From NCBI GenBank assembly GCA_964188305.1, contig OZ076890.1: DNA of 64,000 bases, one strand, 5' to 3'. Below are positions 612 through 58,244 of this stretch, piece after piece. The notes under the pieces were generated by a model. That model had not been told where the DNA came from. It saw only the letters and a list, made by a program, of their open reading frames with translations, and searched no databases. The stretch is from Podarcis bocagei. Its lineage: Eukaryota. Position 1 is the first letter of the stretch; the number at the start of each line of letters is the position of its first letter. Made by a program: the position numbers and the translations under genes.

Positions 612-1094
612 TTGAAGGACACTGACAAACTGGAACGTGTCCAGAGGAGGGCAACCAAAATGGTCAAAGGCCTGGAAACGATGCCTTATGAGGAATGGCT
701 AAGGGAGCTGGGCATGTTTAGCCTGGAGAAGAGGAGGTTAAGGGGTGATATGATAGCCATGTTCAAATATATAAAAGGATGTCACATAGAGGAGGGAGAA
801 AGGTTGTTTTCTGCTGCTCCAGAGAAGCGGACACGGAGCAATGGATCCAAACTACAAGAAAGAAGATTCCACCTAAACATTAGGAAGAACTTCCTGACAG
901 TAAGAGCTGTTTGACAGTGGAATTTGCTGCCAAGGAGTGTGGTGGAGTCTCCTTTTTTGGAGGTCTTTAAGCAGAGGCTTGACAACCATATGTCAGGAGT
1001 GCTCTGATAGTGTTTCCTGCTTGGCAGGGGGTTGGACTCGATGGCCCTTGTGGTCTCTTCCAACTCTATGATTCTATGATTCTATGATTCTATG
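612..1094 (+). mobile_element. 5'-truncated CR1 LINE (ORF2 C-terminus, 3' UTR, (ATTCTATG)n tail)
   Basis: ORF 612-914 [16 protein letters not shown]...[11 protein letters not shown]...RTRSNGSKL is the typical CR1 ORF2 C-terminus; ends in ATTCTATG repeats; near-perfect flanking repeat aacccatc (604-611) / aacctatc (1095-1102). Confidence 0.95.
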
Positions 1095-1821
1095 AACCTA
1101 TCAGTAATAGAGAAAGTCTGCATGCTTTCCTCTAGAACTTTAGATTAGTAAGTCAAATAAATATCTTTGCCCTCTAGGAGTACATCTTATACTATGTAAA
1201 AAGAAGAAATAAATAAGGAAAACCCACATTGTCATAGGCAATTTACAGTAAGTGTATTAAGTATGTGGCCAAGTCTGTTGTCTGGAATAACTGCCTCAGA
1301 AGCATTAGTCTTGCCTCAAAAGGGGGTGTATGATGCTGTAATTTCTTCGAAAAACAATTTCTGTATGTAGTTTCAATTTAAAAGCAAATTTTTCAGGAAC
1401 ATGTGAGAAATCAGACTTGTATGGTGAGCCTGTACACTGTTGTGTGTTTTTTAGCCCTATTACTTATCTTTAGGCCCATATATGCACCAATCAGCAGAAG
1501 TAGTTTGTGAACATTTATCTTTGTATTCGAGCTCTTCTGGAATCCAATTTCTCCTGATTACTATTGCCTCAGGCCATGTCCCATCTGCTCCAAAGGTAAA
1601 GAGAGTTCAGCACACACAGAGATATAGATATCAGGGGGTTTTTTTCATGTCAATACTATAGAGGTGGGTGGAGTTTGAAAGCATATTACTGTTCTCATAC
1701 AGAACTTCTATTGAAGTTTGCTAGGTATAGTTTTATCAGTGTTCCCAGTAATCTTCTAATCACCAAAGAGGGGGAAATGTGTCAGACAGGTATTGAAGCA
1801 CATTGGGGAGGATGTGTGTGA

Positions 1822-7531: not shown

Positions 7532-7669
7532 TACAGTGTGAGCTTAATTAGTATTTTTGCCTCCTAGCTTTTGCCTCCTGTGTGAGAGGCACTGGTTTTT
7601 GCCCCAGGGTGAAAGCCTATTGGTGGAAACTGCCCCGCTGGATGCAAAAAGGTATTGGTGCATCTACAC

Positions 7670-7805
7670 CAGGTATAGGCAAACTCAGCCCTCCAGATGT
7701 TTTGGGACTACAACTCCCATCATCCCTGACCACTGGTCCTGTTGGTTAGGGATCATGCGAGTTGTAGTCCCAAAACATCTGGAGGGTTGAGTTTGCCTAT
7801 GCCTG
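7670..7805. mobile_element. Palindromic hAT MITE (136 bp)
   Basis: Nearly fully self-complementary (caggtataggcaaactca ... tgagtttgcctatgcctg); 8-bp TSD atctacac / atctacat. Confidence 0.9.
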
Positions 7806-8725
7806 ATCTACATACCAAGGGGAAGCTTTGTTTCTTTTTCTTTTTTTGCTGTGTCTTTGCCACAGAGCTAACTGTTGTTCCTAATATCATTCAAATTATC
7901 GGTTAGCTGGGAGCCTGTACTTATTGTAAATGTGAATGACATGTGTGTTAAAGAGTGATAGGAAGAATGGATTAATGTGAGTTGGTGTGTGAGTGCAGCG
8001 GGATGCTGTGAGTATGGTGTAGATGGTTGCACTCTGTCCCCCTTTCTGGTTTCTTAATCAATCCCAATGCACCTGGCTGCTATTCCACTGAGCTTCCTGC
8101 TCAGTAGTGCTGTTACTCAATGCCAGGTCCATTTGGAACAAGACTGCACTCATTCATAATTTGATCATGGAGGAGGAAGCCAATCTGTCATGCATTACTG
8201 AGACCTGATTAGATTAGCTGTGTGGGCCAGAATTCACGGAGCTTTACCCAGCTGGGAACTCTGTGCAGAACCAGGCCAGACTTGAGGAATGGTGGTGGTG
8301 ATGGTGGGGATTATTGTGCTGATCTTGAGAGATTATAGCTGATTGAGGGAATTGGCAAGTATCTCATTGGTAAAGATGTTCAATTGGTCAAGATGCTGGG
8401 ACACTTGAAATTCACTTATAAAGTCAATTAAATTTCCTGAGTGGGGCTGGGCTGCAATTTCATTAGTAATTATTTTTTTAAAAAAAGAATCTTGTATCTG
8501 TTTGGCTATAATGATCTAAGTTTATGCTGACCTTAAGAGCCACCTTGAATGTGAGGTTGATGTTGGTATCTTCTATGGTTTATCAGGTGTTGAGGTTGTG
8601 CAGTACAAGGCATGTTATGATTATGGAGTTGGCACTGAGGGAATGGAAATAATTCCCCCTCTTAATGTTGGTGGTATAATCCCCCCCCCAAAAAAAAATT
8701 AAACAAATAGTGCCTCCAAAATGAG

Positions 8726-13115: not shown

Positions 13116-13433
13116 CATGGGTAGGCAAACTAAGGCTGGGGGCCGGATCTGGCCCAATTTCCTTCTAAATCCGGCCTGTGGATGGTCTGGGAATTAGCAT
13201 GTTTTTACATGATTAGAATGTGTCCTTTTATTTAAAATGCACCTCTGGTTTATTTGTGGGGCCTGCCTGGTGTTTTTACATGAGTAGAATGTGTGCTTTT
13301 ATTTAAAATGCATCTCTGGGTTATGTGTGGGGCATAGGAATTCGTTCATTCTCCCCCCAAATATAGTCCACCCCCCCCCAAGTTCTGAGGGACAGTGAAC
13401 CGGCCCCCTGTTGAAAAAGTTTGCTGACCCCTG
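13116..13433. mobile_element. hAT MITE with internal ~70-bp tandem duplication
   Basis: TIR catgggtaggcaaact / agtttgctgacccctg; perfect 8-bp TSD tcctagga (13108-13115, 13434-13441); unit tgtttttacatga.tagaatgtgt...gtggggc occurs twice (~13200-13262, ~13271-13333). Confidence 0.92.
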
Positions 13434-27778: not shown

Positions 27779-27960
27779 ACAGATAGGTAGCCGTGTTGGT
27801 CTGCCATAGTCAAAATAAAAAAATTCCTTCCAGTAGCACCTTAAAGACCAACTAAGTTAGTTCTGTGTATCTGAAGAAGTGTGCATGCACACGAAAGCTC
27901 ATACCAAGAACTAACTTAGTTGGTCTTTAAGGTGCTACTGGAAGGAATTTTTTTATTTTG
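27779..27960 (+). mobile_element. Penelope-like element remnant (pseudo-LTR with inverted 5' copy)
   Basis: Perfect 54-bp inverted repeat (27811-27864 / 27907-27960) enclosing a hammerhead motif; 16-bp flanking direct repeat tttgatagttctagtt (27763-27778, 27957-27972). Confidence 0.85.
27867..27904 (+). ncRNA. Minimal type I hammerhead ribozyme motif
   Basis: GUAU-CUGAAGA-A-GUGUG(CAUG)CACAC-GAAA-GCUC^AUAC: intact core, stem I GUAU/AUAC, stem II 5+ bp, palindromic AGCU stem III. Confidence 0.85.
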
Positions 27961-29299
27961 ATAGTTCTAGTTCTCCATCATGAATCCTACAAATTCCATG
28001 ATGCCGTGTAATATACAAATGGCACAATAATGGATCTGCCATATTCCAAAGCAGATCCAAACTTTCACTTCCATGGATCTGAATCAATAGAACTCCCAGA
28101 GTGAGATTTTGAAGCACCATGAGGAAATATTTTCCAGGTTCTTTATTATTTATTACTATATAATGCTTCCATGCTTCATATATTGTTTTCTTCATACTTT
28201 GTTCCAGTTGTGTTAGAAATTTTCTTTCAAAGTTATCATTATAGCACAACCAACTAGTAAAAGTTCATTTCCCCCATGCTTCCAGCCATAGAACCACGGT
28301 GAGAATTTAAAGCTGAAAGGTATATATGGTTACACCAAAAGAGTGCGTGTGTATGTGTGTGTATACCTGATTACAACAAAAGTTGCAATGGGACAAGGCT
28401 TTCATTTTCCCAAATAGATTTTGCCTTGGGCATCTCTTTGAGCCGCAAAGGATTGAAGCTGATTCTAAAGCATGATGCAGCCTTACTGCTTTGATGTTGT
28501 CTACCTGGAAAGGATGAAAGCTATGAATGCATTTTGTCAATCTATTGAGCCTGCCCATGTTAAAAGCAAACTAAAGATATTCCTGTAATGGTAGTTTGGA
28601 TGACAACCAGGAATAGTGGTCTGGCTTACACTGCACTTTGAATACACCTCTGCTGAATTACAGCATCACTCATAATTCAGTATATGGTCAAGATTATGAG
28701 CACTTCTGAGCTTCCTAAGCAATCATTAATAGTATAGAGTTCTTGCTACTTAGAGCTGTGGCAGGTACATTTACCATCATGCTTCCCACCTCATCTAAGG
28801 CAAATATGGCACAGGACAATAAATTATCATATGATTGTTCCAGATTTTATCCTTAGATTAGTAATCAGAAGATGAAGGAAGGAGTTGCAGGGGAGGAAGA
28901 AGTGGTGCTGAGAAGGCAATCTGATAAACTTTCAGGTTGCCATTGCAGAAGAATGGAATAAGGGCATTTCTATCTTATCTTGAATTTGGCCAGAGTTTGA
29001 GAAACAGAAATTTTATGCACAATGCAGATTTAGGCAAGAACTAAAAAAACCCCTTCGAATTGTTGAGAAATGCAGTGGGTTATGAAGTACTGAAAAATGG
29101 AAAGTAATAAACCCACAGATAATGTCATCTGTGGATCTTTGGGATAGTTAGGACTACTTCCGACCCACTGAAATTAAATTAATCCGACAGTTCTCACCTC
29201 ACATAAAAATTTGCTAATTATTACTTATAAATGTGATATTACTGCTTAACATTTTTCTACTAGCATAGAATGTATGCACATTGGGCTGGATCCAGACTT

Positions 29300-34191: not shown

Positions 34192-35275
34192 GTAAGTTAT
34201 GAATTCACTTGAGAACGATCTTTGGTATGACAGCCCTGTGGAAGATAAACACCCCAATACATAACAACATCATGGCAAGCGGAACACTGAACAAATTAGT
34301 CAATTATTTTCCTGGATTATTCTGCTGCGACCTGGCAACAAAGGAAAATATATTCAAAGGGCTGGTGTTTACAAGCTTGACAAATATTCCCAAACCTCCT
34401 TTGTTACTTTTCAGCACCAGTGAAAGTCAGCTTGTCAGATAAGGGGGGGGGAGAGAGAGAGCAGACAATAAAGCAGCTCCCCCACCCCACTTTTTGTCAC
34501 ATTAATCGAGGGCTGCCTTCCCCAACCTTGTGCCCTCCAGATGTTTTGAACTACAACTCCCACCATCCTTGATGAAGCTGGTTGGGGCTAATCACTGCTG
34601 GTGCTGGCCACCCTTAAAATTCAATTAAGAGGCCAGAAATTTGCCTCCAGTTCATAAGTAGCTGATCTGAAGGAGCCATCATCTTACCTGACACATTCAC
34701 CTGCCAGCTGGTATTCAGCAATAGAAAAGGAAAAGTCTGAGTTTACTCTAGTTTTACCCTGGAGAGAGGTGAGCTACAGCTGATTTTTGCAAATGGCCTG
34801 CAGACTTGCTGGGCCCCGTGTGGGATATTTTACCACTTTGTGACTGTTTCCAGCACTGCTTCATCTCTAGGCTTTCATGTTATTCCTGTGCCGGACACAT
34901 TTCTATAAAATACCTAGAATCAGCCTCTTTTTCTGGTCAGGAATAATGGCCTGGGTGGTGGAGAGGAGCCACAGAGCCATCTTCCTAAGATCAACATCAC
35001 TGTTTATTACCTGGATGAGGATGATGATGGGTGGGCAGGGGGCAGGGCTGTGCAGGTGCACTGGAAGGAGCACCAAATTGGATCCATTGATGTGCCTCCA
35101 TGTCACTTCCCTTGTAGCTACACTCCCATGTCCCAGGTTCTGTCCAGGTAAGAAGTATTGATGCTGTTGTAGAGAGGATGACTTTGTCTCACCACACAGG
35201 CCATTCCTTGCTGTCCTGCCAGCAGGTGAAAACTTTATTGTTCCAAAAGGCTTTTGGGGAACTGTCAGTTTTTAA

Positions 35276-35383
35276 AATAAAAAAATTTTCTTCCAGTAGC
35301 ACCTTAAAGACCAACTAAGTTAGTTCTTGGTATGAGCTTTCGTGTGCATGCACACTTCTTCAGATACACACGGCTACCTATCT
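35276..35383 (-). mobile_element. Penelope-like element remnant (same family as 27779)
   Basis: Near-identical to 27779-27960; 15-bp TSD actgtcagtttttaa (35261-35275, 35384-35398); short inverted terminal piece acacggctacctatct. Confidence 0.85.
35330..35367 (-). ncRNA. Minimal type I hammerhead ribozyme motif
   Basis: Exact reverse complement of 27867-27904. Confidence 0.85.
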
Positions 35384-40351: not shown

Positions 40352-40644
40352 CTGTCCCACTCCTTGGCTTGAGCATGGATTGGTTTGGTTAGTGTGCTAG
40401 TAGGATAATTCCTTCATTCCAAACTTTATTCCACCTTTACAGGGCTTTTCTTTTTACAAGGAATATAAAGGTCCCATTTTAGGCAATAAAAGCTTTGAAT
40501 TCTAATGATTCCCTTGTACCACCCTAGTATCCTTGCATTTCCTCTTGCAAAGAAAGATTGTGATCGAGGACCCGATCCCCGCTTGGGGAATAAAGACACG
40601 TGGACACAGAATGTAAGGTTAATGGGTAAGGTAAAGGCCACAAC

Positions 40645-40650
40645 TTTATT
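40645..40650 (-). promoter_or_regulatory. Putative polyadenylation signal of the YR element
   Basis: AATAAA on the minus strand ~90 nt from the terminal CA, followed by U-rich sequence. Confidence 0.55.
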
Positions 40651-40989
40651 GATTACAGCATGTGAGAAGGTATTGGCTTAGGCATTGGACCACGGAGCAT
40701 TAGACTCCACCCACTCGTAGAAGGGTGAGTCTGAGGAGGCGTTAACCACCAGTAGGGGAAGCCTGTTGATACTAATCCAACTATAGGCTCTCTTCCTGAT
40801 GTCACCGAGGGTCGTGCCATGGCCCCCCGCCACATGGGCATCAGACAGGATCCACGACCGCCAGATTCCTTTAGTGGAATACCCAAAATTGCCGGGGAAG
40901 GCGATGGCCACACCTTGCCCCCCGAAACACCAACAACACATTCCAATGCCTAACCGCCACCCGAGCCAAAAGGCTCGCCGCCAATACCC

Positions 40990-41564
40990 TCACAGCTGCA
41001 ACCAATCCCTAAGACTATTGGATATGTTAGCCAGCCATATGTCGTTTCCCCGATTTGAAAGATGAACGCCGTCATCCCGGAATAGGGTCTGGTCGCCAAT
41101 CTGGATATCATCATGAGATATAACGAGGCCATTCATAAAATGCACTTTGCGCACTACCGCGTGATTCAAGAGTTTCCTGGATTTCTCGATAGCCATAATG
41201 TTATGTGCACCGCGCCAAACCTTTCTCTTCAAGAGAGAGGACCAGAACAGGGTTGTTATGGGGAATAAGGCAGCCAACTCGTCCAAGACCTTACTCATGT
41301 TCCACAACAAGTCTACACTCTTCCTGCTAGCCAGGTCGTTCTCCCCCAGCTGAATGATTAGAATGTTAGGGGGGCCCAACAGTGAAGCTTTTGCCTTCAG
41401 CAGTGGCATGAGTTCCTGCCAGCGCATGCCCCTTCTTGACAACCAGGAAACTCGCACCCACGATGGTAGCCCCAGATTAGGCATGAAGCCGGAACTTGCT
41501 GCCTAGAGGCGGGCCCAATGCACGATACTGTGGCCGCAAATCCACACTGGACTACCGAAGACAG
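40990..41564 (-). pseudogene. SGNH/GDSL hydrolase ORF of the YR retrotransposon (one premature stop at 41503-41505)
   Basis: Block I VWICGHSIVHWA (GHS at 41527-41535), block II RRGMRW, block III IIQLGEND, block V DDGVHL, all in one frame. Confidence 0.9.
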
Positions 41565-42275
41565 CTAAGAATAAAGAAAGAAAAGACAGGTAAGTGAAGC
41601 GTTCTCAGAATACTTTTGTAGGCATTCGATTTCCAGCAGCCCATCTCCTTGATCCTGTCTGCCAGAAGGCCCATGTGTGTGGCCGTTGTGGCCACACCAA
41701 TCCTATATGAATGTGCCGTGTAGTCTTTGGAAGGGAAGCCGCAGGCATCTATCACTTTGCGAAGTACCCTGGTGAACTGGTGCCTCATCAATTGGGATCC
41801 ATCCTCATGAATAAAGAGCGGGCCAAGGCCGGGTGGTCTGAGGTAAAGGTATCGCCTGGTGTCATTTACTGGGTATGGGCCCTTCTGGCCGGAGACCTTG
41901 AGTTGGACTATGGTGCCCTTACCACCCTGGTCCATCTTAGACTGACGCACCCACACCATCACACCTGAACTGGACACGTGCACGTCCTCCAGGAGGAGGC
42001 CGCACGTTTTCCCACTTGAGGTAGCTTATGCTACCACCTCACCGACCCTAAAGGCACCAAAGAAGGCTATAGTGTATGCTGCAGAGAACAGCTGGGCCTC
42101 AAACTTGGACCAGCAAATTGACCTAAGTTTCATACGTTAGGGGAAAGGGACGATACTTTGGACCTGAAACCCGTGAAGTCGCACCATACTTTCTTATAAG
42201 ACCTGAGGGTAGAGGGTGCAACAGACGCAAATACTCCCTTGATCACTTCGTGTCTCCAAAGTTCCATAGGTGATC
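41552..42275 (-). pseudogene. Tyrosine recombinase (frameshifted, partly deleted)
   Basis: SVAPSTLRSYKKVW N-terminal part; AFFGAFRVGEVV (catalytic Arg); SKMDQGGKG; AHSYRIG (HxxR); MGCWKSNAYKS. Confidence 0.92.
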
Positions 42276-42349
42276 CGGTAAGGGTTCTGGCAGCAGCTGA
42301 GCCCAAGGTGCTAACGGCACAAATGATTGAAGTAGGCGAGACCCCTCTC

Positions 42350-42830
42350 GGAACGCGATGACTGCTAGCCAGTATGTTAACCACCACCTGGTTATCAGTT
42401 CTGAAGCACCTGGCAATTCCGGATCTCCTCGGTCCATATGTGAACAGCCACAACTATGAGAAAAAACTCCAGAAAAGTAAGATTCCGCATGATGGCCTCC
42501 CCTTGCCACTCCGCTGGCCATTGTTGCACGCACCAACGTCCCTTAAAGAACAGACCAAAGGCCAGGGACCCTGCCAAATTGGGGTGGACCTGGAAATCAG
42601 AGGCTACTTAAGGATTTCCTGCGATAGGGAGACTCCGTTGCAGTGTTCCAGAAATCTGATCCACATCTCAAGGTCTGCCTTGACCGACTTGGGGAGTCTT
42701 GCTCTATGGTGCGGATGTTTGAAGGCCCGCTGACAGCCTGTCTAAGCAGGAGCAAAATGGGTGGCCCAGTGAAACTACCTTACACGCAAAGTTAAAATGA
42801 TATAGCAAGGACTGGACCTGTCTAAGAGTG
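42350..42830 (-). pseudogene. RNase H domain (decayed)
   Basis: AGSLAFGLFFKGRW...NLTFLEFFLIVVAVHIW...TDNQVVV, typical of DIRS/Ngaro RNase H. Confidence 0.88.
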
Positions 42831-42859
42831 ACCTATTTATTTATATATATATTTATTTT

Positions 42860-43650
42860 AGGGGAAGGGTTTGATGAATTGTTTCCTTAAGGGCAATTAT
42901 TTTCTCCTCTAGCAGGCGGGCGGATTGAGCTGCTGTGTCAAGCTCTATACCCAGGTAAGTAAGGCGCGTTGTGGGTCCGTCTTATCTGCCTCGACGGGAA
43001 CTCCCAGCTCCTGGGCTAAAGCTGAAAAGGCCTCCAGAAGGGGTATTGGGCTTCCCAACGAGTAGAAAGTCACTGAGGTAACGCGTTACCCCAGGTGAGT
43101 TGGTTCTGTAGCGCAAGGCCCAGTCCCAAAAGGTGCTAAATGTCTCAAAGGTCGAGCAGGCTACAGATCAACTCATCAGCATAGCCTTGCCAATGTAATA
43201 TTTCCCTTGAAATTTGAGTCCCAGCAAATGGAGGTCATTGGGATGAACCGGCAATAGACGGAAGGCTGACTCTGTGTCACATTTTGCCAAGAGTGCCCCA
43301 TGACCAAAATTCTGGATAAGTCTTACTGCCTGATCGAAGGTGGCATATTTTACTGAGCACAATTCCGGTGGAATGGCATCTTATACTGGGCCACCCTTAG
43401 GGTAAGAAAGGTTGTGGATTAATCTGAACTCACCATGGGTCTTTTTGGGTACAATACCAAGGGGCGAGATGTGCAGGTTTGGGATAGGGGGTTGTACGAA
43501 TGGACCAGCCACCCTCCCTGCGGCCACTTCCTTAGCTATTTCCTTTTCTGCAACCTCAAGCGTTTCCCTTACTGACATCTGGTTAGGGGAATCCTTTGCA
43601 ATTAAAGAGTTGGTTACTGGTATTCTGAAACCCTCTGAAAAAACCCTTCC
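42860..43650 (-). pseudogene. Reverse transcriptase (stops, catalytic YLDD mutated to YLSD)
   Basis: EGFRIP; KEVAAGRVAGPF; ISPLGIVPKK..EFRLIHNLSYP; AKCDTESAFRLLPVHP; YLSDF at 43069-43080. Confidence 0.93.
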
Positions 43651-43728
43651 AAAGAAAGGATGCTGCGCTTTCGTCTGGATAGCTAGACAAGAGGTTGCGG
43701 AGAGGAGGGAGCTAGATCAGTGAAAATG

Positions 43729-44436
43729 CTAGACCCGTCTGTTCCCTGCTGCGGGGGCTCCTCTGGAACTAGAATGGTGGAACCCCCGACCTCCCTGAAA
43801 GGGCTGCTTCTCTTTGTAACACGCTGCGGCTGGGTGTACCCCTGCACACCTCTCACACTCGTGCGGATACTTACACGACTGCCTTTGGCCTGACCCCTTA
43901 TTGAATTCCCAACACACCTTGCGCTTTGGCTCGCCTCTTATTGCTTACCCATGCAAAAAGAATCTAATGGCTTCTTCTCAACATACGGGATGACCGCCAC
44001 CTCAGCTGTCTGAAGCTCCCCCTCCAGCTGCTGTTCCTCCTCACCGGCCGACGAGATGCCCGATTCTGGAAGCTGGAAGCTGGACCCTGGACTGCTTATT
44101 CTGTGAAGGACTGAAAGAACTGGACGCAACAGGGTTATTGACACAGGCCGGCGGCCTCTGCGCAGGCAACCCAATGCTGTTCTGAGGACCAGATGATGCC
44201 AAGTGAGCCCGAAACATAGTATGCACTGCCGCCGCTACTGCCTGAGAGCTTGGGCCTGTGCCTGAGAACTGAGCATCGTTGAAGAGGGCGGCAGAGGTGC
44301 CTGGGGGGTCATCAACCTGGGTGAGAGGTGGGCTCTCCGGAACCCCCTGGGTATCTGGCATCATATCAGGGGTAGCAGTGGAGGGCATGGGGTTAAAAAC
44401 GCTGCTCATAATCATCAATGAACGATCTAAAGGCAT
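43729..44436 (-). pseudogene. Gag-like ORF1 with C-terminal Cys/His Zn-finger (frameshifted)
   Basis: P/S/A-rich N-terminus; CWEFNKGS.QRQSCKYPHECERCAGVHPAAAC motif directly upstream of RT. Confidence 0.8.
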
Positions 44437-44744
44437 TTAGGATGTGTGAAATAGGTTTGGGGTTATTATCCCGCGACGAATTACGGCTATTGGCACCCAT
44501 GCAGCCTGAGGTGTGAGCTGATTCCGCCGCACAGTGCTTCCTCTTAGGTGCCATGGATAACGCGCTGAAGCAACTTCCACAAATGCGTGCTACTGTTTAC
44601 AAGCGGTTGTACAGGCACGTGTTATTGATTCTGAAATGAATGTGCTAAATAATGATTGATTTACTTATAATAAATAACGATTCTTCCAAGTATTCAATTA
44701 CATGTTTAATTGTTTATCCAATTAGCATGTGCGTGCGTGTGTTA

Positions 44745-44746
<2 letters not shown>

Positions 44747-44787
<41 letters not shown>
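44747..44787. repeat. (TA)n microsatellite flanking the Penelope-like fragment (resumes 44940-44951)
   Basis: Direct observation. Confidence 0.9.
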
Positions 44788-44789
<2 letters not shown>

Positions 44790-44939
44790 TTTCGTAGATT
44801 TTCACGGGTACAGGAATGCAGGTTTTGGTGTCTTCGGGTATCTTCCCGTGTAAGAGTTGGGGTGTCTAGGCGACGTTTCGACGAGGTCTCACTCGTCATC
44901 TTCAGGCTGGTGCTTTCGGCTTCTTGTTACTAGAACAGA
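44788..44939 (-). mobile_element. Penelope-like element 3' fragment (second family) in a (TA)n tract
   Basis: Hammerhead core followed by ...cccgtgaaaatctacgaaagc-(AT)n; TA repeats on both sides. Confidence 0.7.
44868..44909 (-). ncRNA. Minimal hammerhead ribozyme motif (stem I weak)
   Basis: CUGAAGA-U-GACGAG(UGAGAC)CUCGUC-GAAA-CGUC^ with palindromic ACGU stem III; only 2 bp of stem I evident. Confidence 0.7.
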
Positions 44940-45052
44940 ATATATATATATTCTTCTTTTTTATTTTTATTTTTATTATTTAGTTTATTTTTTATTTATT
45001 TATTTATTTATTATTATTAAAGATGCTTCCTACTTCATATTATAATATTTCA

Positions 45053-45208
45053 TTCAATCCCCTGCAATGCAGGGATATGCAGGGGTCCCATACCGGGATC
45101 AAACCAGCAACCTTGGGCTTATCAGCACCATGCTCTAACCAGTTGAGCTATCCAGGCTCTCTAGAATTGTGTGGGACCCCGAGGGTCATTTAGTCCAACC
45201 CCTTGCAA
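45053..45208 (-). mobile_element. tRNA-Ile-derived SINE with CR1-like tail, in permuted order (tail then head)
   Basis: 45085-45157 reads gcctggatagctcaactggttagagcatggtgctGATaagcccaaggttgctggtttgatcccggtatgggac (tRNA-Ile-like); 45161-45208 matches the CR1 terminus seen at 1021-1070 (ggggttggact.gatg.ccct..ggt). Confidence 0.8.
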
Positions 45209-45292
45209 ACCCCTTTCAAACCCCTTTCTTGACTCGAAGAAAATGTGTGTGTAATGGTGGGGATGGCTGGCGCGGCTGCGTTTGAGCAGCAA

Positions 45293-45345
45293 GCCACGCC
45301 CCCGCGAGCTTCCCTGTTGGGTGCCCAACCAGGGAGGGGCGTGGC
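45293..45345. promoter_or_regulatory. Inverted pair of GC boxes (GGGGCGTGGC), putative promoter of the YR element
   Basis: gccacgcccc...ggggcgtggc with inner tccctgttggg/cccaaccaggga stem, ~60-110 nt inside the 5' terminus. Confidence 0.4.
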
Positions 45346-47188
45346 ACGCCAGCCCTGGAGTTGAAGCAGGGGGCAGAGCATGACGCAGGAATCGTCTCCC
45401 GATCACAACCCCTTCCCTTCCTGGGAGGAGGAAAGGCTTTTCCAAATTGCGTCTCGGCTGGCACAAGCAAGGCTGTTGTTTACAGTTCACTATCCAGTTC
45501 CATGCCCAAATTGGGCTATGGAATGCTCCCCTCCCATATTTCTCTCAAGTGATCTGATAATGAGGGTTTGGCTGGGAGACATCTCCCCCTCACTAAGCAG
45601 GTGTCCTTGAGTGCTCACCAAAGAATCTCTCTCCCCTTTAATAATTTTTGAATGCAATATTTGCTGATTAATTGATGGATAATCTTAAAAACAAAAATAA
45701 AACTAGGAGAAATTTTCAGCACAGCACTAGTTTCTACACATCACCAGAGATTCATTGGCCAAAATATTTACCCTGTGTGTCCATATAAAAATGGCTACCT
45801 GCCAAGTGCTCCACTTAAAGTAATATGTTACAATTTGTTCTTAGAACACACTTCAGTTTACTCAGCCTTGATAACAATGTTGAGACAATGGAGGGTTTAG
45901 CTGCTTATTCAAACGATAACACCTGTTGATAAATAGCATTTCTATATCCCATAGCACTATATCAAAATCCATATTTTGTCAGATACAGTTACTCACTTTT
46001 AGTAGCTTCACCAAAGTTCATTTCAGGCTGAAAGCAATATTACTGAAGTAAGAACACAAAAATTGTTGTAAAGCTTTGTTCTAATTGCCTTAAATTTGCA
46101 TTATACAGTTTCCGAACACTCATATAAACTGTTCTTCTCAGCAAAGTATTGTTTATTTTCCCTAAGATGCCAGCCATGCAGAGATGACTCAAAATGTTCT
46201 AGAACAACCAGAGGGGAAATAAAAATAATAATGTTTCTTCACCTTTCTGCATCTCTTTCCGTCATCAGCACAAAGTCCCTTTCTCCCTAGTTTGTCTTTG
46301 AGGTGTTTCTCTAAAAAACATAAGCTTCATCCAATCATTTCATCCTGGGCTAAGAGTAGGGCAAATACATTCTGGGCCAGAAAATAAATGCTGCTCATTC
46401 AGAAATATGGTTACCCTTATACAATAAGGCTTATAGTGATGTTTGAATGATAAGTTTGTAAACTTAGCTGTATCCAACATTCAAGGATGTTTCAATATAT
46501 TTGAACCTCCTCTCCAAATGTATTGCATTTGTTTTCTTTAAGGAATTAGCCTAAAGAATCACAAAACGTAACATATGGAAATTGTGTAGAAAATACTATG
46601 AAGGTAAAAGAAAAAAGTGGGGACCTTGTATTTACAATAACTGTAATCAAATTTATGATAATAGATTCCAAATACTCTTGTGCTCTTTGTTGCCCTGGAG
46701 CTATTAAAATGAATACATTCTTGGGGGAAATTCCTTCTCTACATATGATCTTATCTGTTCCTTTTGTACTAATGAGGTTTCAGATTTCCATTGTATTTTG
46801 ATGATATATTTGGCCCACAGCAAATGCTATTTCCTTTGAAATGTTTTCCATGTCAGAGATGACATGGAGTCTTCAAAATCCATCAGAAACAAACTAGGGT
46901 TAAATTGTAATCTCTTACATAGTTTCTTGAAGCAGCATAAATGTGCAATTCTAGAAAGGTCTTTATGGCCTACACCTTAGCTATACCTTTTGATTGTCAT
47001 GCTATTTGTGCTTCATTTTTTGAATAAAAACTCAGCTGAATTTGAAGTCCTGGCCTGCTTAATATTAGAGTAGGTAACTGTCTCTGTGTGTTCCAAGTTA
47101 GAGGATGGGTTTAAAATCTAAAGTCCTTTTTTTCTGATGGCATGGCTACCCTTTCAATGGCAGCTACCGCCTAGGACTGATTCAAACA

Positions 47189-54472: not shown

Positions 54473-57263
54473 GATACTCCTTTATTAAGCATAAATATAT
54501 TTACATAATTTGTAGATACTTAAGTATCTTCTTTAAACACTGAATATAACACAATATTTAATGAACAAAAACTCTCACATTCTTAAAGGTAAGGCTGCCT
54601 TGTAGAAAAACCTACAAAAATTATTGACCAATCAATTTTTCCTTAGCCTGCTGCAGGACTAGTATTCTGTGTGCCCTTTTACAACTGGCATGGAAATGCA
54701 GGGCACTAGCCTCTTAGCAAGCAAATTAGAAAACAAAAATTAAAGCCTTCTACCCAGCACGTTGATAAAGGAAAGGTGGAGGGACACTTGTTTGGGCAGA
54801 ATTCTTTGTTTACCAGGTGAATTGGTAAATCAAGGCTGATGTATGAACTTTGATATTTTATTTTTATGTTTTCCTATTATAGCAAGGCACCAACTCTGAA
54901 ACAGCTTGATTAAAATGTTTCTTTGTCAATAGCATTGGCTGTCACTAATTAATCAACTAAAGTTTTCCTTGATATAGCTAGTGAATCCTTGCTACAGTTC
55001 CCACAAGTAAACATTTTTTTACAATGTATTTCTATTCTCAGTTCTGGGCTACCAATGCCATCTCTTAAATTCACGTAAATTCAAGTATATTCTTTGCACA
55101 GCAATGCTTAGCTTTCACTGTCAACATCCTGAGGTTGATCTCCCGGCAGGTAGAACTAGATCTGCCAAAAGATTTAAATCTCCCTCTGTCTCCCTGAACA
55201 AAATATGTACCAAGAGAGAAGCATGACTGTGACACTGTCAACACTTTCCCATTTATACCATAGCTTTTTTAAAAATTGCAGTCAATTTTCAAGGAGTTCA
55301 GCAAGTAAATGCCATTACGCTTCATCACATATCTGCTCTGGTCATTGCCTTCAAATCAAAACTTTACTCTTTGTTAGGGTACATTGTCATGTTTCTTGTC
55401 AGAAGATAGGCTTTGGAGCGATGAAGTTGTCTTCTCAACCAAACCTTTCACTGTTCTGAACTTCTGCTGGAAACCACAAATGTTTTTTTTGGCTGCCAGA
55501 ATACTCATTCCCATCACACTGCGCCAGAAGCAGTTGTTGTGTGGCCATGGCAGGGGCTGGACTCCTCTTCCCTCAGCTTCAGTGGAAAGGGAAAGGACTT
55601 TCCACTTCCTTTTGTTGCAGCAACTGCCGAGGACACGCCTTTGTTGCCAGTCATGGGAGCAGGAGGGGCCAGGGCCATGGAGCAGATGGGGGGACATTTC
55701 CCCCTTCTAGTCTGCTTTCTGGCTATATAAAGTTGACTGCTCCTGGGCCTGGACCCTGGATTCCTCTCCCTCCCTCCCTCAGTTTCAGGGATTATGGGCT
55801 GCCTGGAATTTAGGAGGCATTCCGTTGCCAGAGCTTGCTAATAGTTGCTGTATTTGGGGCCAGGGAGGAATTTTGCTTGCAGACCAATTGGGCCTGCCTG
55901 TGAGTTTTTGCCTCCTCATAGCAATGGTCACTATTCCTTGGCATGGAGCTGGATCCTTAGTCCACACAGGTGCATAACACTCCATATAGAAAATGAAAGG
56001 CCAGCTATTTGCGTCATCTCTGTGCTTGTCAATTAAACAAAAATAGTGTCTGTGGAGGGGAAGGGAGAATTAGAGAAGGACTCTGGTGTGTGGGGAGTTG
56101 TTTTCTGGTTGCAAATAACAGGTATAGGGTGATTCCAATTGGGATGGCAAAGAAGCTGAGGAGTTAAACCCTCGTCTCCTCACACAATACTTTCCTGATC
56201 CAGGTTATTTCATGGCCCCTTCCCCAGCTTGCTTTCTCTTTTTTAAGATTAAAATGGAGCATGCCAGGGCAAGATACATGATGAAATAATGTCTGATTTA
56301 TATGTTTTAAAATATTGTGGTAAATTCTCTTGATTTTCTTATTTTATCTTTTTGTAAACTGCTTTGAGGGATTTTCTTTTTTACAATCAAATGCTGTATA
56401 CATTTTATGAAATAAATACATAAAATAAAATATTCTGCCCTAACTCATCAGGCAGAATGCTGACATATGGGTTTTGCATGAAGGGTAGGCAGGACAATCC
56501 ACCAGGAAGCAGTGGGGCAGGACAGAGGTGGAGCCGCCACCATATCTGCAGATCTGTTGTGCATGCCAGGTGGGAAAGATTACTGGGGCCAGCCTGAAGC
56601 AATATTCACATTTAAAAGGAAGAATTGCTATTATTCTATCTTCCTTTATTACTCTAGGCCCACTCTCACAAGTAAGGGGAAAGAAACACTTTTGAATAAG
56701 CACTATACAATGCATGAGAAATTTCCTTAAATATATATATAAATGTGAGATGCTGGAGATATTCAAACTAAAGAACATGGATTACAGGCTAAATTGGTCC
56801 ATAGGAGGAGACCTTCAACCTTCAACTCCATGAAGCATTTTTTCAGGGCGATTGATTGATTGTTCTATCTCACATCTGACTCTTCTTTACTACATCATCT
56901 CGGGAGACTGCATTCTAGTCTAGATTTTAGTTTCTCAATCTGGAACTTGCCATTCAAGGCAGCACATTACAACTACTCTCCCAAAGGTCAAGGATCACTT
57001 AATTGGATTTCTGACAGTGATGTATGAAGACAGGAGAGCTCTTAGTAAAACAAGCTTTCTTCAGGTCCAGGACACACCAGCTTTGTAAACTTCATTGTCC
57101 CTGCCAGCTCAAGGGCTGAAGTTTTCATTTGTGACCAAAGCACTTGCAAGTAATACTGGTAGGCACTGAGCATCTTAGCCACAATCCAGAGAATATTCAG
57201 AATCCATGCATATAGGTACACAAATCTGGGATGGGTTGCTTATCGTGTAGCAACCCTCTACCG

Positions 57264-57399
57264 TAGGCTTCCTCAACCCTGGCCCTCTAGATGTCTTAAG
57301 ACTACAATTCCCATCATCCCTGACCACTGGTCCTGCTAGCTAGGGATCATGGGAGTTGTAGGCCAAAAACATCTGGAGGGCCAAGGTTGAGGAAGCCTG
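57264..57399. mobile_element. Palindromic hAT MITE (family of 7670)
   Basis: taggcttcctcaacc / ggttgaggaagcctg; same core as 7670; 8-bp TSD ctctaccg / ctctacca. Confidence 0.9.
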
Positions 57400-58244
57400 C
57401 TCTACCACATCTAATTTTGCAGAGAAAACAGACTTTGAAATGCAAGCAAGTTTCTCAAACGCAGTCTGAGTTATGATATAGGGGCTCAAGGAAAAGGAAA
57501 AGTAGTGGGTACACAATGTGTCCCCATGAATTGTGAATCCTTTGCAAATTTCAAAGTATGTCTTTTTTCAAGAAAGAAGATAAAGTATGTTCTATAGATG
57601 TCGAGGGATACTAGAAATAGGATGAAGTTATGTTTCTCTCTCTCATCATTTTGACCCTGAAGTCCACGTTTTGGGGTTTATCCATAAAGTGGGTCATCCT
57701 TTCCAAACATGTTAACTCTCTCCTCTTCTGCCACATGTTGCCCCACTATAACAAATGCTGCATCCATCTTTTGACACAATGTGCTCCCTTTTATCTTCAG
57801 ACGTGTGACATACTTTATGGATGGTCCCAAAGGGATTTGGGAATGCTTCCTCCATTAGGCAGCCATACTGGAACTATTTATTCTGTAAACAAATGTGGAG
57901 ATGTCCAACTGCCTTGAAGGCAAGGCTAGTTTGCAACACCCCATCTTACTATTCAATCCAGCTCAGCTCCTGAATAAAAGGAAACGCTTGTGGGTGAGAG
58001 TATGAGTGTGTGGCGTGTTTTTATGTGTGTGAGAGAGCGAGAGAGAAAAAATGCTGTGTCTGCATGTCTGGTGAATGTGCGTGCTGCCTGAATCCTGAAT
58101 GCTTATGTGCGGCAAGCCTGTGTGTTTGTCATCTGTATGTATTCTATACTCATGTGCTCATAATGCCCACTGCTGGCAAGTGGCCCTCAGAAGGGTAGCA
58201 GACTGTCAGGGTGGCCCTTAGGACAAAATAGATGAGCTACTCCT

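Follow-up and report, generated by a model that had tools for sequence, protein, structure and literature searches.

The window analysed here is the whole stretch of 64,000 nucleotides of contig OZ076890.1 (assembly GCA_964188305.1) from the lizard Podarcis bocagei. This 64-kb window is vertebrate DNA, rich in AT and containing microsatellites as well as short repeats, and at 40557..45409 on its minus strand lies a whole, decayed copy of a tyrosine recombinase (YR) retrotransposon. The element has the layout A-[gag-RT/RH-YR-SGNH]-B, in which a gag-like gene, a reverse transcriptase with RNase H (RT/RH), the recombinase and an SGNH hydrolase stand between two non-coding regions, and it is delimited by a CpG-rich block against CpG-poor flanks, by inverted ends and by a domain map. 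An initial annotation had considered a YR cassette packaged in the termini of a long terminal repeat (LTR) and, with it, a novel mobile system. The locus is best explained as a dead copy of a known class of jumping gene, not as a new hybrid element.

Profile searches and a tblastn domain map place the coding regions on the minus strand in the order gag-like, RT/RNase H, YR and SGNH, and bear out both order and position of the cassette as first proposed. The nearest proteins are RefSeq entries of Podarcis muralis (LOC144326428, LOC144329169) and Zootoca vivipara (LOC118096659), which are 77-78% identical to the element across RT and YR stretches and 77% in the SGNH hydrolase; this comparison is at the protein level and the termini lie outside it. 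The gag-like remnant of the first open reading frame (ORF1; 43732..44554, minus strand, start codon at 44554) was recognised by tblastn with the homologues P0032 and P0001. About 220 of its central codons are deleted, the boundary being approximate, and a weak CCCH zinc finger is found near the C-terminus (Pfam zf-CCCH_10, E 0.008, under the cut-off). The RT/RNase H remnant (42246..43735, minus) is 77.5% identical over 200 amino acids to P0001 of Podarcis muralis; it contains stops and about 7 frame changes, its RT catalytic motif is disrupted, and 35-50 codons are deleted at the C-terminal end of RNase H, which runs straight into the recombinase. The latter (41603..42327, minus; Pfam Phage_integrase, E 3e-4, under the cut-off; 59-77% identity to P0029-P0033) has lost about 78 codons near 42133, on which four proteins agree, and its catalytic-region motifs are still recognisable. 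It is followed by the SGNH/GDSL hydrolase ORF (40990..41571, minus) with one internal stop (Lipase_GDSL_2, E 3.5e-4, under the cut-off; 77% identity to residues 176-368 of P0029). All Pfam matches on window fragments are thus under the curated cut-offs, with identities to lacertid proteins reaching 77-78%.

Relative to its closest proteins the copy shows at least 5 stops and about 7 frameshifts; it has also suffered three internal deletions and taken up nested insertions. The initial annotation had the cassette right and overlooked this heavy decay, together with insertions in the 5' part and an inverted repeat in the 3' part that are described below. The copy is dead and, given its stops, frame changes, deletions and 5' insertions, a poor guide to how its family is built.

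The putative A region (45201..45408, minus) is GC-rich and strongly folding: the fold of 45195-45412 is more stable than that of shuffled sequences (z = -3.2; reached by 1 of 200 shuffles). The GC boxes noted at first just inside the 5' end were located at 45344-45336 and 45302-45294, where they form an inverted pair; TATA[AT]A has no match in 45201-45408. At the other side of the cassette an AATAAA polyadenylation-type signal (40645..40650, minus) lies about 87 nt before the 3' end, close to the 90 nt first estimated. Between it and the hydrolase a long-range inverted repeat spans 40658..40999 (minus), whose arms 40999-40980 and 40953-40942 pair with 40689-40658; it covers the SGNH stop and stops 8 nt short of AATAAA. 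Its 12-bp perfect arm is equalled by 2 of 300 shuffles, while folding the 3' region as a whole gives no significant result (z -0.74). Because these arms reach across the SGNH stop and pair into what had been taken for half of an LTR, the end of the cassette and this 'LTR' half look like one unit. We may speculate that the inverted repeat could steer the choice of polyadenylation site between B copies.

Both outer ends carry a short, imperfect inverted sequence. The left one (45385..45408, minus; GTT junction at 45409-45407) begins with 9 perfect bp, and the right one (40557..40582, minus; AAT junction at 40559-40557) is the end of the putative B region and in itself a small hairpin. Aligned as 45408-45385 against 40558-40582 (24 and 25 nt), the two match in 20 of 25 columns. 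The inverted ends of about 24 bp noted at first are therefore real as a feature of the alignment, and only their perfect part has to be corrected: it comprises 9 bp (TTG..CAA) and not 8 bp counted from TG/CA, and TG..CA represents just one way of cutting a longer palindrome whose perfect part extends one base further. This 9-mer occurs twice in the window, once per end, a number reached by 2 of 100 shuffles. Of 2000 shuffles, 0.3% do as well as the 25-nt match in windows of 101x101 nt centred post hoc on the ends, whereas 16-17% of 500 do so when the space is 701x640 nt; the significance of the match is moderate. Independent support for the boundaries comes from CpG, whose frequency per 100 bp is 3.7 and 4.3 in the inner 300 bp at the two ends and drops to 0.33 and 0.67 outside. 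In agreement with the earlier account, no target site duplication (TSD) of 3-8 bp was found at boundary offsets of -3 to +3, although in an old copy a former TSD may have been erased. The junction trinucleotides GTT and AAT fit an NTT..NAT pattern, but their first bases differ and the comparison concerns a single copy. Several DIRS1-like elements are tabulated with ends of the NTT..NAT type, and outer termini of 9-36 bp with merely 50-85% complementarity, inserted without TSD, are reported for this group (PMC3266345, Table 3 and accessible text).

RT/RH combined with a tyrosine recombinase, in the absence of a DDE integrase, identifies the element as a YR retrotransposon of the order DIRS. Gag, RT/RH and YR in one orientation and without a methyltransferase are Ngaro-like features, and the SGNH ORF 3' of YR is that of the hydrolase-bearing Ngaro-like subgroup. 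The methyltransferase domain that follows RT/RH in DIRS1-like elements is absent from the domain map and from 18 homologues; RT homologues bear PF00078, and the Dam family occurs in none of the 18. As initially reported, neither the split direct repeats of Ngaro elements (SDRs, A1...B1-A2-B2) nor an internal complementary region (ICR) is present in the examined copy: no candidate within about 10 kb on each side scored above shuffled queries. The inverted terminal repeats (ITRs) of about 66-316 bp that accompany an ICR in DIRS1-like elements are likewise not seen, the inverted match being 25 nt only. A direct match at 40624/40894 (23 nt, 78%) was rejected as a repeat since it is within the chance range. 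A longer, gappy inverted match of the A region to 40748-40850, obtained with lenient scoring, was reached by 1.1% of shuffles and by 11.8% of real pairs and is not counted as evidence. Because the SDRs are lacking in the examined copy we file it under Ngaro-like derivatives and do not present it as a proven canonical member of Ngaro. Named references for Ngaro, DIRS1 or Gypsy are not part of our trees, and the superfamily placement therefore rests on domain content.

[quoted passage not shown] According to the accessible text of that study many Xenopus copies have lost all or part of their repeats, and the DIRS-54_XT consensus lacks SDRs although its copies 5 and 10 have them. The lizard copy differs from these families by the missing A2 and second B and by its host; short imperfect inverted ends such as those found here are not described for Ngaro in the accessible part of the same report. 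LTR-like A+B units derived from SDR elements are also on record, namely solo AB units resembling solo LTRs in Cafeteria Ngaro (PMC8547959) and SIRE, which is A2B2 of VIPER (PMC6681497). The lizard copy, which retains the ORFs between A and B, is unlike them and represents the counterpart product. A sequence motif search gave no match in 12 of the 13 supplementary files of PMC6681497, nor in one file of PMC11303007. With DIRS1-like elements, as far as they are covered by the available text of PMC3266345 and PMC7192593, the copy shares the YR, the lack of TSD and partly complementary outer termini, and its junction trinucleotides resemble the NTT..NAT type, whereas it has no methyltransferase, no ITR of 66-316 bp and no ICR and does have an SGNH hydrolase.

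Phylogenetic trees were computed for both enzymes, and both group the window with Podarcis and Zootoca proteins. In the RT tree, based on one single-frame stretch of the window, 17 of 33 proteins and 12 of 14 more distant loci (L012 and L014 excluded), the window is sister to P0001 (support 89/84) within a group of 13 rows that comprises lacertid sequences and one unnamed protein (90/97). The YR tree, which covers 5 proteins and 7 loci, puts the window inside a lacertid clade of 6 rows (100/100). Several related families exist in the genomes of Podarcis muralis and Zootoca vivipara. To judge from these trees there is no sign of separate origins of RT and YR.

We consider it probable that the locus is a dead lacertid YR retrotransposon with the coding layout of SGNH-Ngaro elements, whose parent was organised as A1-ORFs-B1-A2-B2 and of which this copy kept A-ORFs-B. 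The first part of such a parent would be an AB unit split around the ORFs. The likeliest route would be recombination between B1 and B2, by which A2 and one B were lost; the same product might result from YR resolution of a two-junction circle and integration of a one-junction circle, or from assembly collapse, and the three routes would look alike here. A loss of this kind would be ordinary in a copy from which three internal blocks are already gone and which has acquired at least 5 stops and about 7 frameshifts. A plus B would resemble an LTR split round a cassette, since promoter-like GC boxes would come from A and the polyadenylation signal from B. For the left and right inverted ends the best interpretation is that each forms one half of a near-palindromic B/A junction on which the YR presumably acted; this would also account for the lack of a TSD. 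Given that AATAAA lies about 87 nt inside the 3' end and that no internal template is present, an RNA intermediate could presumably not have restored these ends, and a derived, defective form is therefore favoured over an autonomous new design. In DIRS-1, deletion of the ICR abolishes retrotransposition (PMC7192593).

Relatives with DNA sequence lend some support to the postulated parent. A scan of bacterial genome contigs yielded 14 loci (L001-L014) with this type of RT/RH, 38-46% identical to the query protein, which are most likely eukaryotic DNA binned into bacterial assemblies. Four of them (L002, L008, L011 and L013) join the 3' end to the 5' end, in that non-coding DNA comes after SGNH and leads on to gag. 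L011 closes into a circle by an overlap of 141 bp, and in L013 a unit of 414 bp is duplicated (98%) that starts just after AATAAA, as B-A'-B-A would. In L004 and L005 YR is followed by SGNH and the sequence ends about 200 nt later; the remaining 8 loci are uninformative. The perfect 9-mer of the lizard ends is found in none of the 14 loci, and the 5' and 3' non-coding parts of L002, L008, L011 and L013 show no inverted match to each other. For a palindrome in the joined non-coding region the score was reached by 0 of 100 shuffles in L002, 90 of 100 in L008 and 39 of 100 in L011, so that outside support for a palindromic junction is weak. A tblastn search of plasmids gave no match, and when translations of the A region in two reading frames (34-121 amino acids, a weak test) were compared with proteins, no candidate for a predicted ORF across the B/A junction emerged. 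Apart from this question, L002 contains at 804-845, about 140 nt past the SGNH ORF, perfect inverted arms of 16 bp with a 10-nt spacer (0 of 100 shuffles) that have the shape of a tyrosine recombinase site. In three loci SGNH is more than 1 kb away from YR, with non-coding DNA containing internal repeats in between (L008 1480-2770, L002 5230-6415, L013 before 3250), a spacing unlike that of the window, L004 and L011.

Several observations weigh against the loss of A2 and one B. No remnant of either was detected by self-comparison or within about 10 kb on each side, the family is known at the DNA level from a single copy, and the SDRs of the parent are accordingly hypothetical. The two junction trinucleotides are not the same. 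The lacertid RT group is not starred (90/97), and the trees are without a named Ngaro reference. The related loci are distant (RT 38-51% identical) and their assemblies look collapsed; L013 has no YR in the stretch examined, tandem or LTR-type copies would also give 3'-to-5' joins, and the palindrome is significant in one of three relatives. Finally, the purine run at the left boundary, a rare feature at any single position (0.0023), finds no explanation.

The strongest competitor is the first option of the initial annotation, an undescribed terminal architecture: a lacertid YR lineage without SDRs or ICR that is bounded by inverted ends of about 25 bp only. Its members might be excised as single-junction A-ORFs-B circles and re-integrated by the YR, or restore their ends in another way. 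In its favour, the two ends are clean and coincide with the limits set by CpG, there is no trace of A2 or B1, and the ends placed head to tail give an 18-bp perfect palindrome that resembles a YR site; this last argument is circular, because the inverted match itself determined where the ends were joined. Published work recognises repeat arrangements of other kinds (PMC8969392 and PMC2632668, as far as accessible). However, the proposal relies on one heavily deleted copy, a template for end restoration would be missing given the internal AATAAA, the cassette-bearing relatives show 3'-to-5' joins, and the Xenopus relatives have SDRs (PMC9210276). The absence of SDRs and ICR from the copy thus stands, and the extension to a whole family, drawn from one decayed copy, is less likely than the loss of A2 and one B; we regard such a lineage as unlikely. 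The same judgement applies to the idea of an SGNH-bearing lacertid YR lineage, or a recurrent class of products, that exists as A-ORFs-B monomers without SDRs or ICR; on circularisation its 25-bp inverted ends would make up a palindromic recombination site, and the element would thus move as a YR-excised circle. For this we see a small chance.

Less probable still is that the inverted ends are partly due to chance and that the true termini lie elsewhere or are eroded. The frequency with which shuffles equal the match in the wide search space and the presence of two CpGs about 45 nt beyond the left end would be in line with this, but the CpG content falls sharply at both ends and the 9-mer occurs at these two sites of the window only.

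The remaining options invoke an LTR. A run of 14 purines (45409..45422, minus), read initially as a polypurine tract (PPT), does precede the 5' TG; its meaning as part of an integrase-type LTR is unsupported. A PPT implies an internal region and a partner LTR upstream, and a solo LTR is not expected to have a PPT. No retroelement internal region is found upstream of the run, where the flank is AT-rich with CpG at the host level, and the rest of the window contains 15 other runs of at least 14 purines with TG within 0-2 nt. TG..CA preceded by a purine run is present, yet it is embedded in the longer TTG..CAA match. A Pfam scan of 48 flanking ORFs, which do not represent every frame, detected no integrase or other retroelement domain; a weak MGS-like match at 46549-46779 finds no support in PDB sequences and is taken as noise. 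The comparison of 183 homologues with the sequence outside the element gave no credible match (one stray high-scoring segment pair, E 0.025), and no partner LTR was found within about 10 kb on each side or, by blastn, in the window. An LTR made by an integrase is expected to have a TSD of 4-6 bp (PMC12440569). The copy resembles a Gypsy/ERV LTR in TG and CA near its ends, in the LTR-like order of GC boxes and AATAAA and in the upstream purine run, but with TSD, integrase, partner LTR and Gypsy-like internal region all missing, and with a perfect inverted match that reaches past TG/CA, the reading of PPT and TG..CA as an integrase-type LTR finds no support, and capture of a YR cassette in a Gypsy/ERV LTR that carried it is very improbable.

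Equally improbable is a one-off insertion of the cassette into an unrelated solo LTR: the joined ends would be LTR-like in size and signals and the 5' part did gather secondary insertions, but the proposed junction near 40980 is inside the arm that crosses the SGNH stop and has its pairing partner at 40658-40677. For a solo LTR one would expect a TSD, of which none is seen, and no PPT, and solo AB units are normal Ngaro products (PMC8547959). The initial annotation had suggested to decide this point by the occurrence of the joined halves as a stand-alone LTR; that test is non-discriminating because ordinary Ngaro elements yield such units (PMC8547959, PMC6681497).

As a dead copy of a known class, which is the likeliest reading, the element matters little in itself. 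Annotation can, however, be misled by the A-ORFs-B derivatives that SDR elements give rise to, since these look like an LTR enclosing a cassette. Provided that the inverted ends recur in other copies, the B/A junction would be a candidate binding site for the YR of a eukaryotic retrotransposon; the specificity of the DIRS-1 YR is stated as not experimentally tested (PMC7192593). Should intact lacertid copies truly be without SDRs, the restoration of ends would become a real open question, and if the elements did move as monomers or circles this would reveal the site at which a eukaryotic YR attaches, and YR retroelements would have a third terminal architecture.

Between the A region and the gag-like remnant two groups of secondary insertions are present. 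At 45050..45200 (minus) Rfam and self-comparison indicate the head of a tRNA-derived short interspersed element (SINE, 45150-45092) after a tail fragment of the type of long (LINE) or short interspersed elements at about 45200-45162. The head matches the Rfam tRNA model with 27 bits (E 0.0016, under the gathering score of 29), and the tail fragment is 75% identical over 48 nt to window positions 1021-1068; the SINE and CR1 labels of these fragments are our assumption. The own tail of the SINE head is cut short and the tail fragment stands directly upstream, which looks like a permuted or tandem SINE insertion. A LINE-like 3' end at 850-1100 (plus), presumably CR1-like, has an 8-bp tandem tail in common with the fragment 45162-45209. 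The second group (44748..45020, minus; repeat and motif scan) comprises an A-rich tract, a fragment with a hammerhead-like core and (AT)20. The core (44905-44876, minus) lies between AT-rich tracts and consists of CTGA.GA, a stem and GAAA; it has no match to the Rfam hammerhead, and a literature search on hammerhead or Penelope sequences in lizards yielded no paper. Further hammerhead-like cores, all of which we take to be probably Penelope-derived, are located at 27870 (plus) and 35363 (minus) within a palindromic repeat family (27810-27961, 35275-35379). Elsewhere the window contains repeats of a palindromic type that resembles miniature inverted-repeat transposable elements and a 71-bp tandem duplication (7662-7813, 27810-27961, 57257-57405 and 13200-13333).

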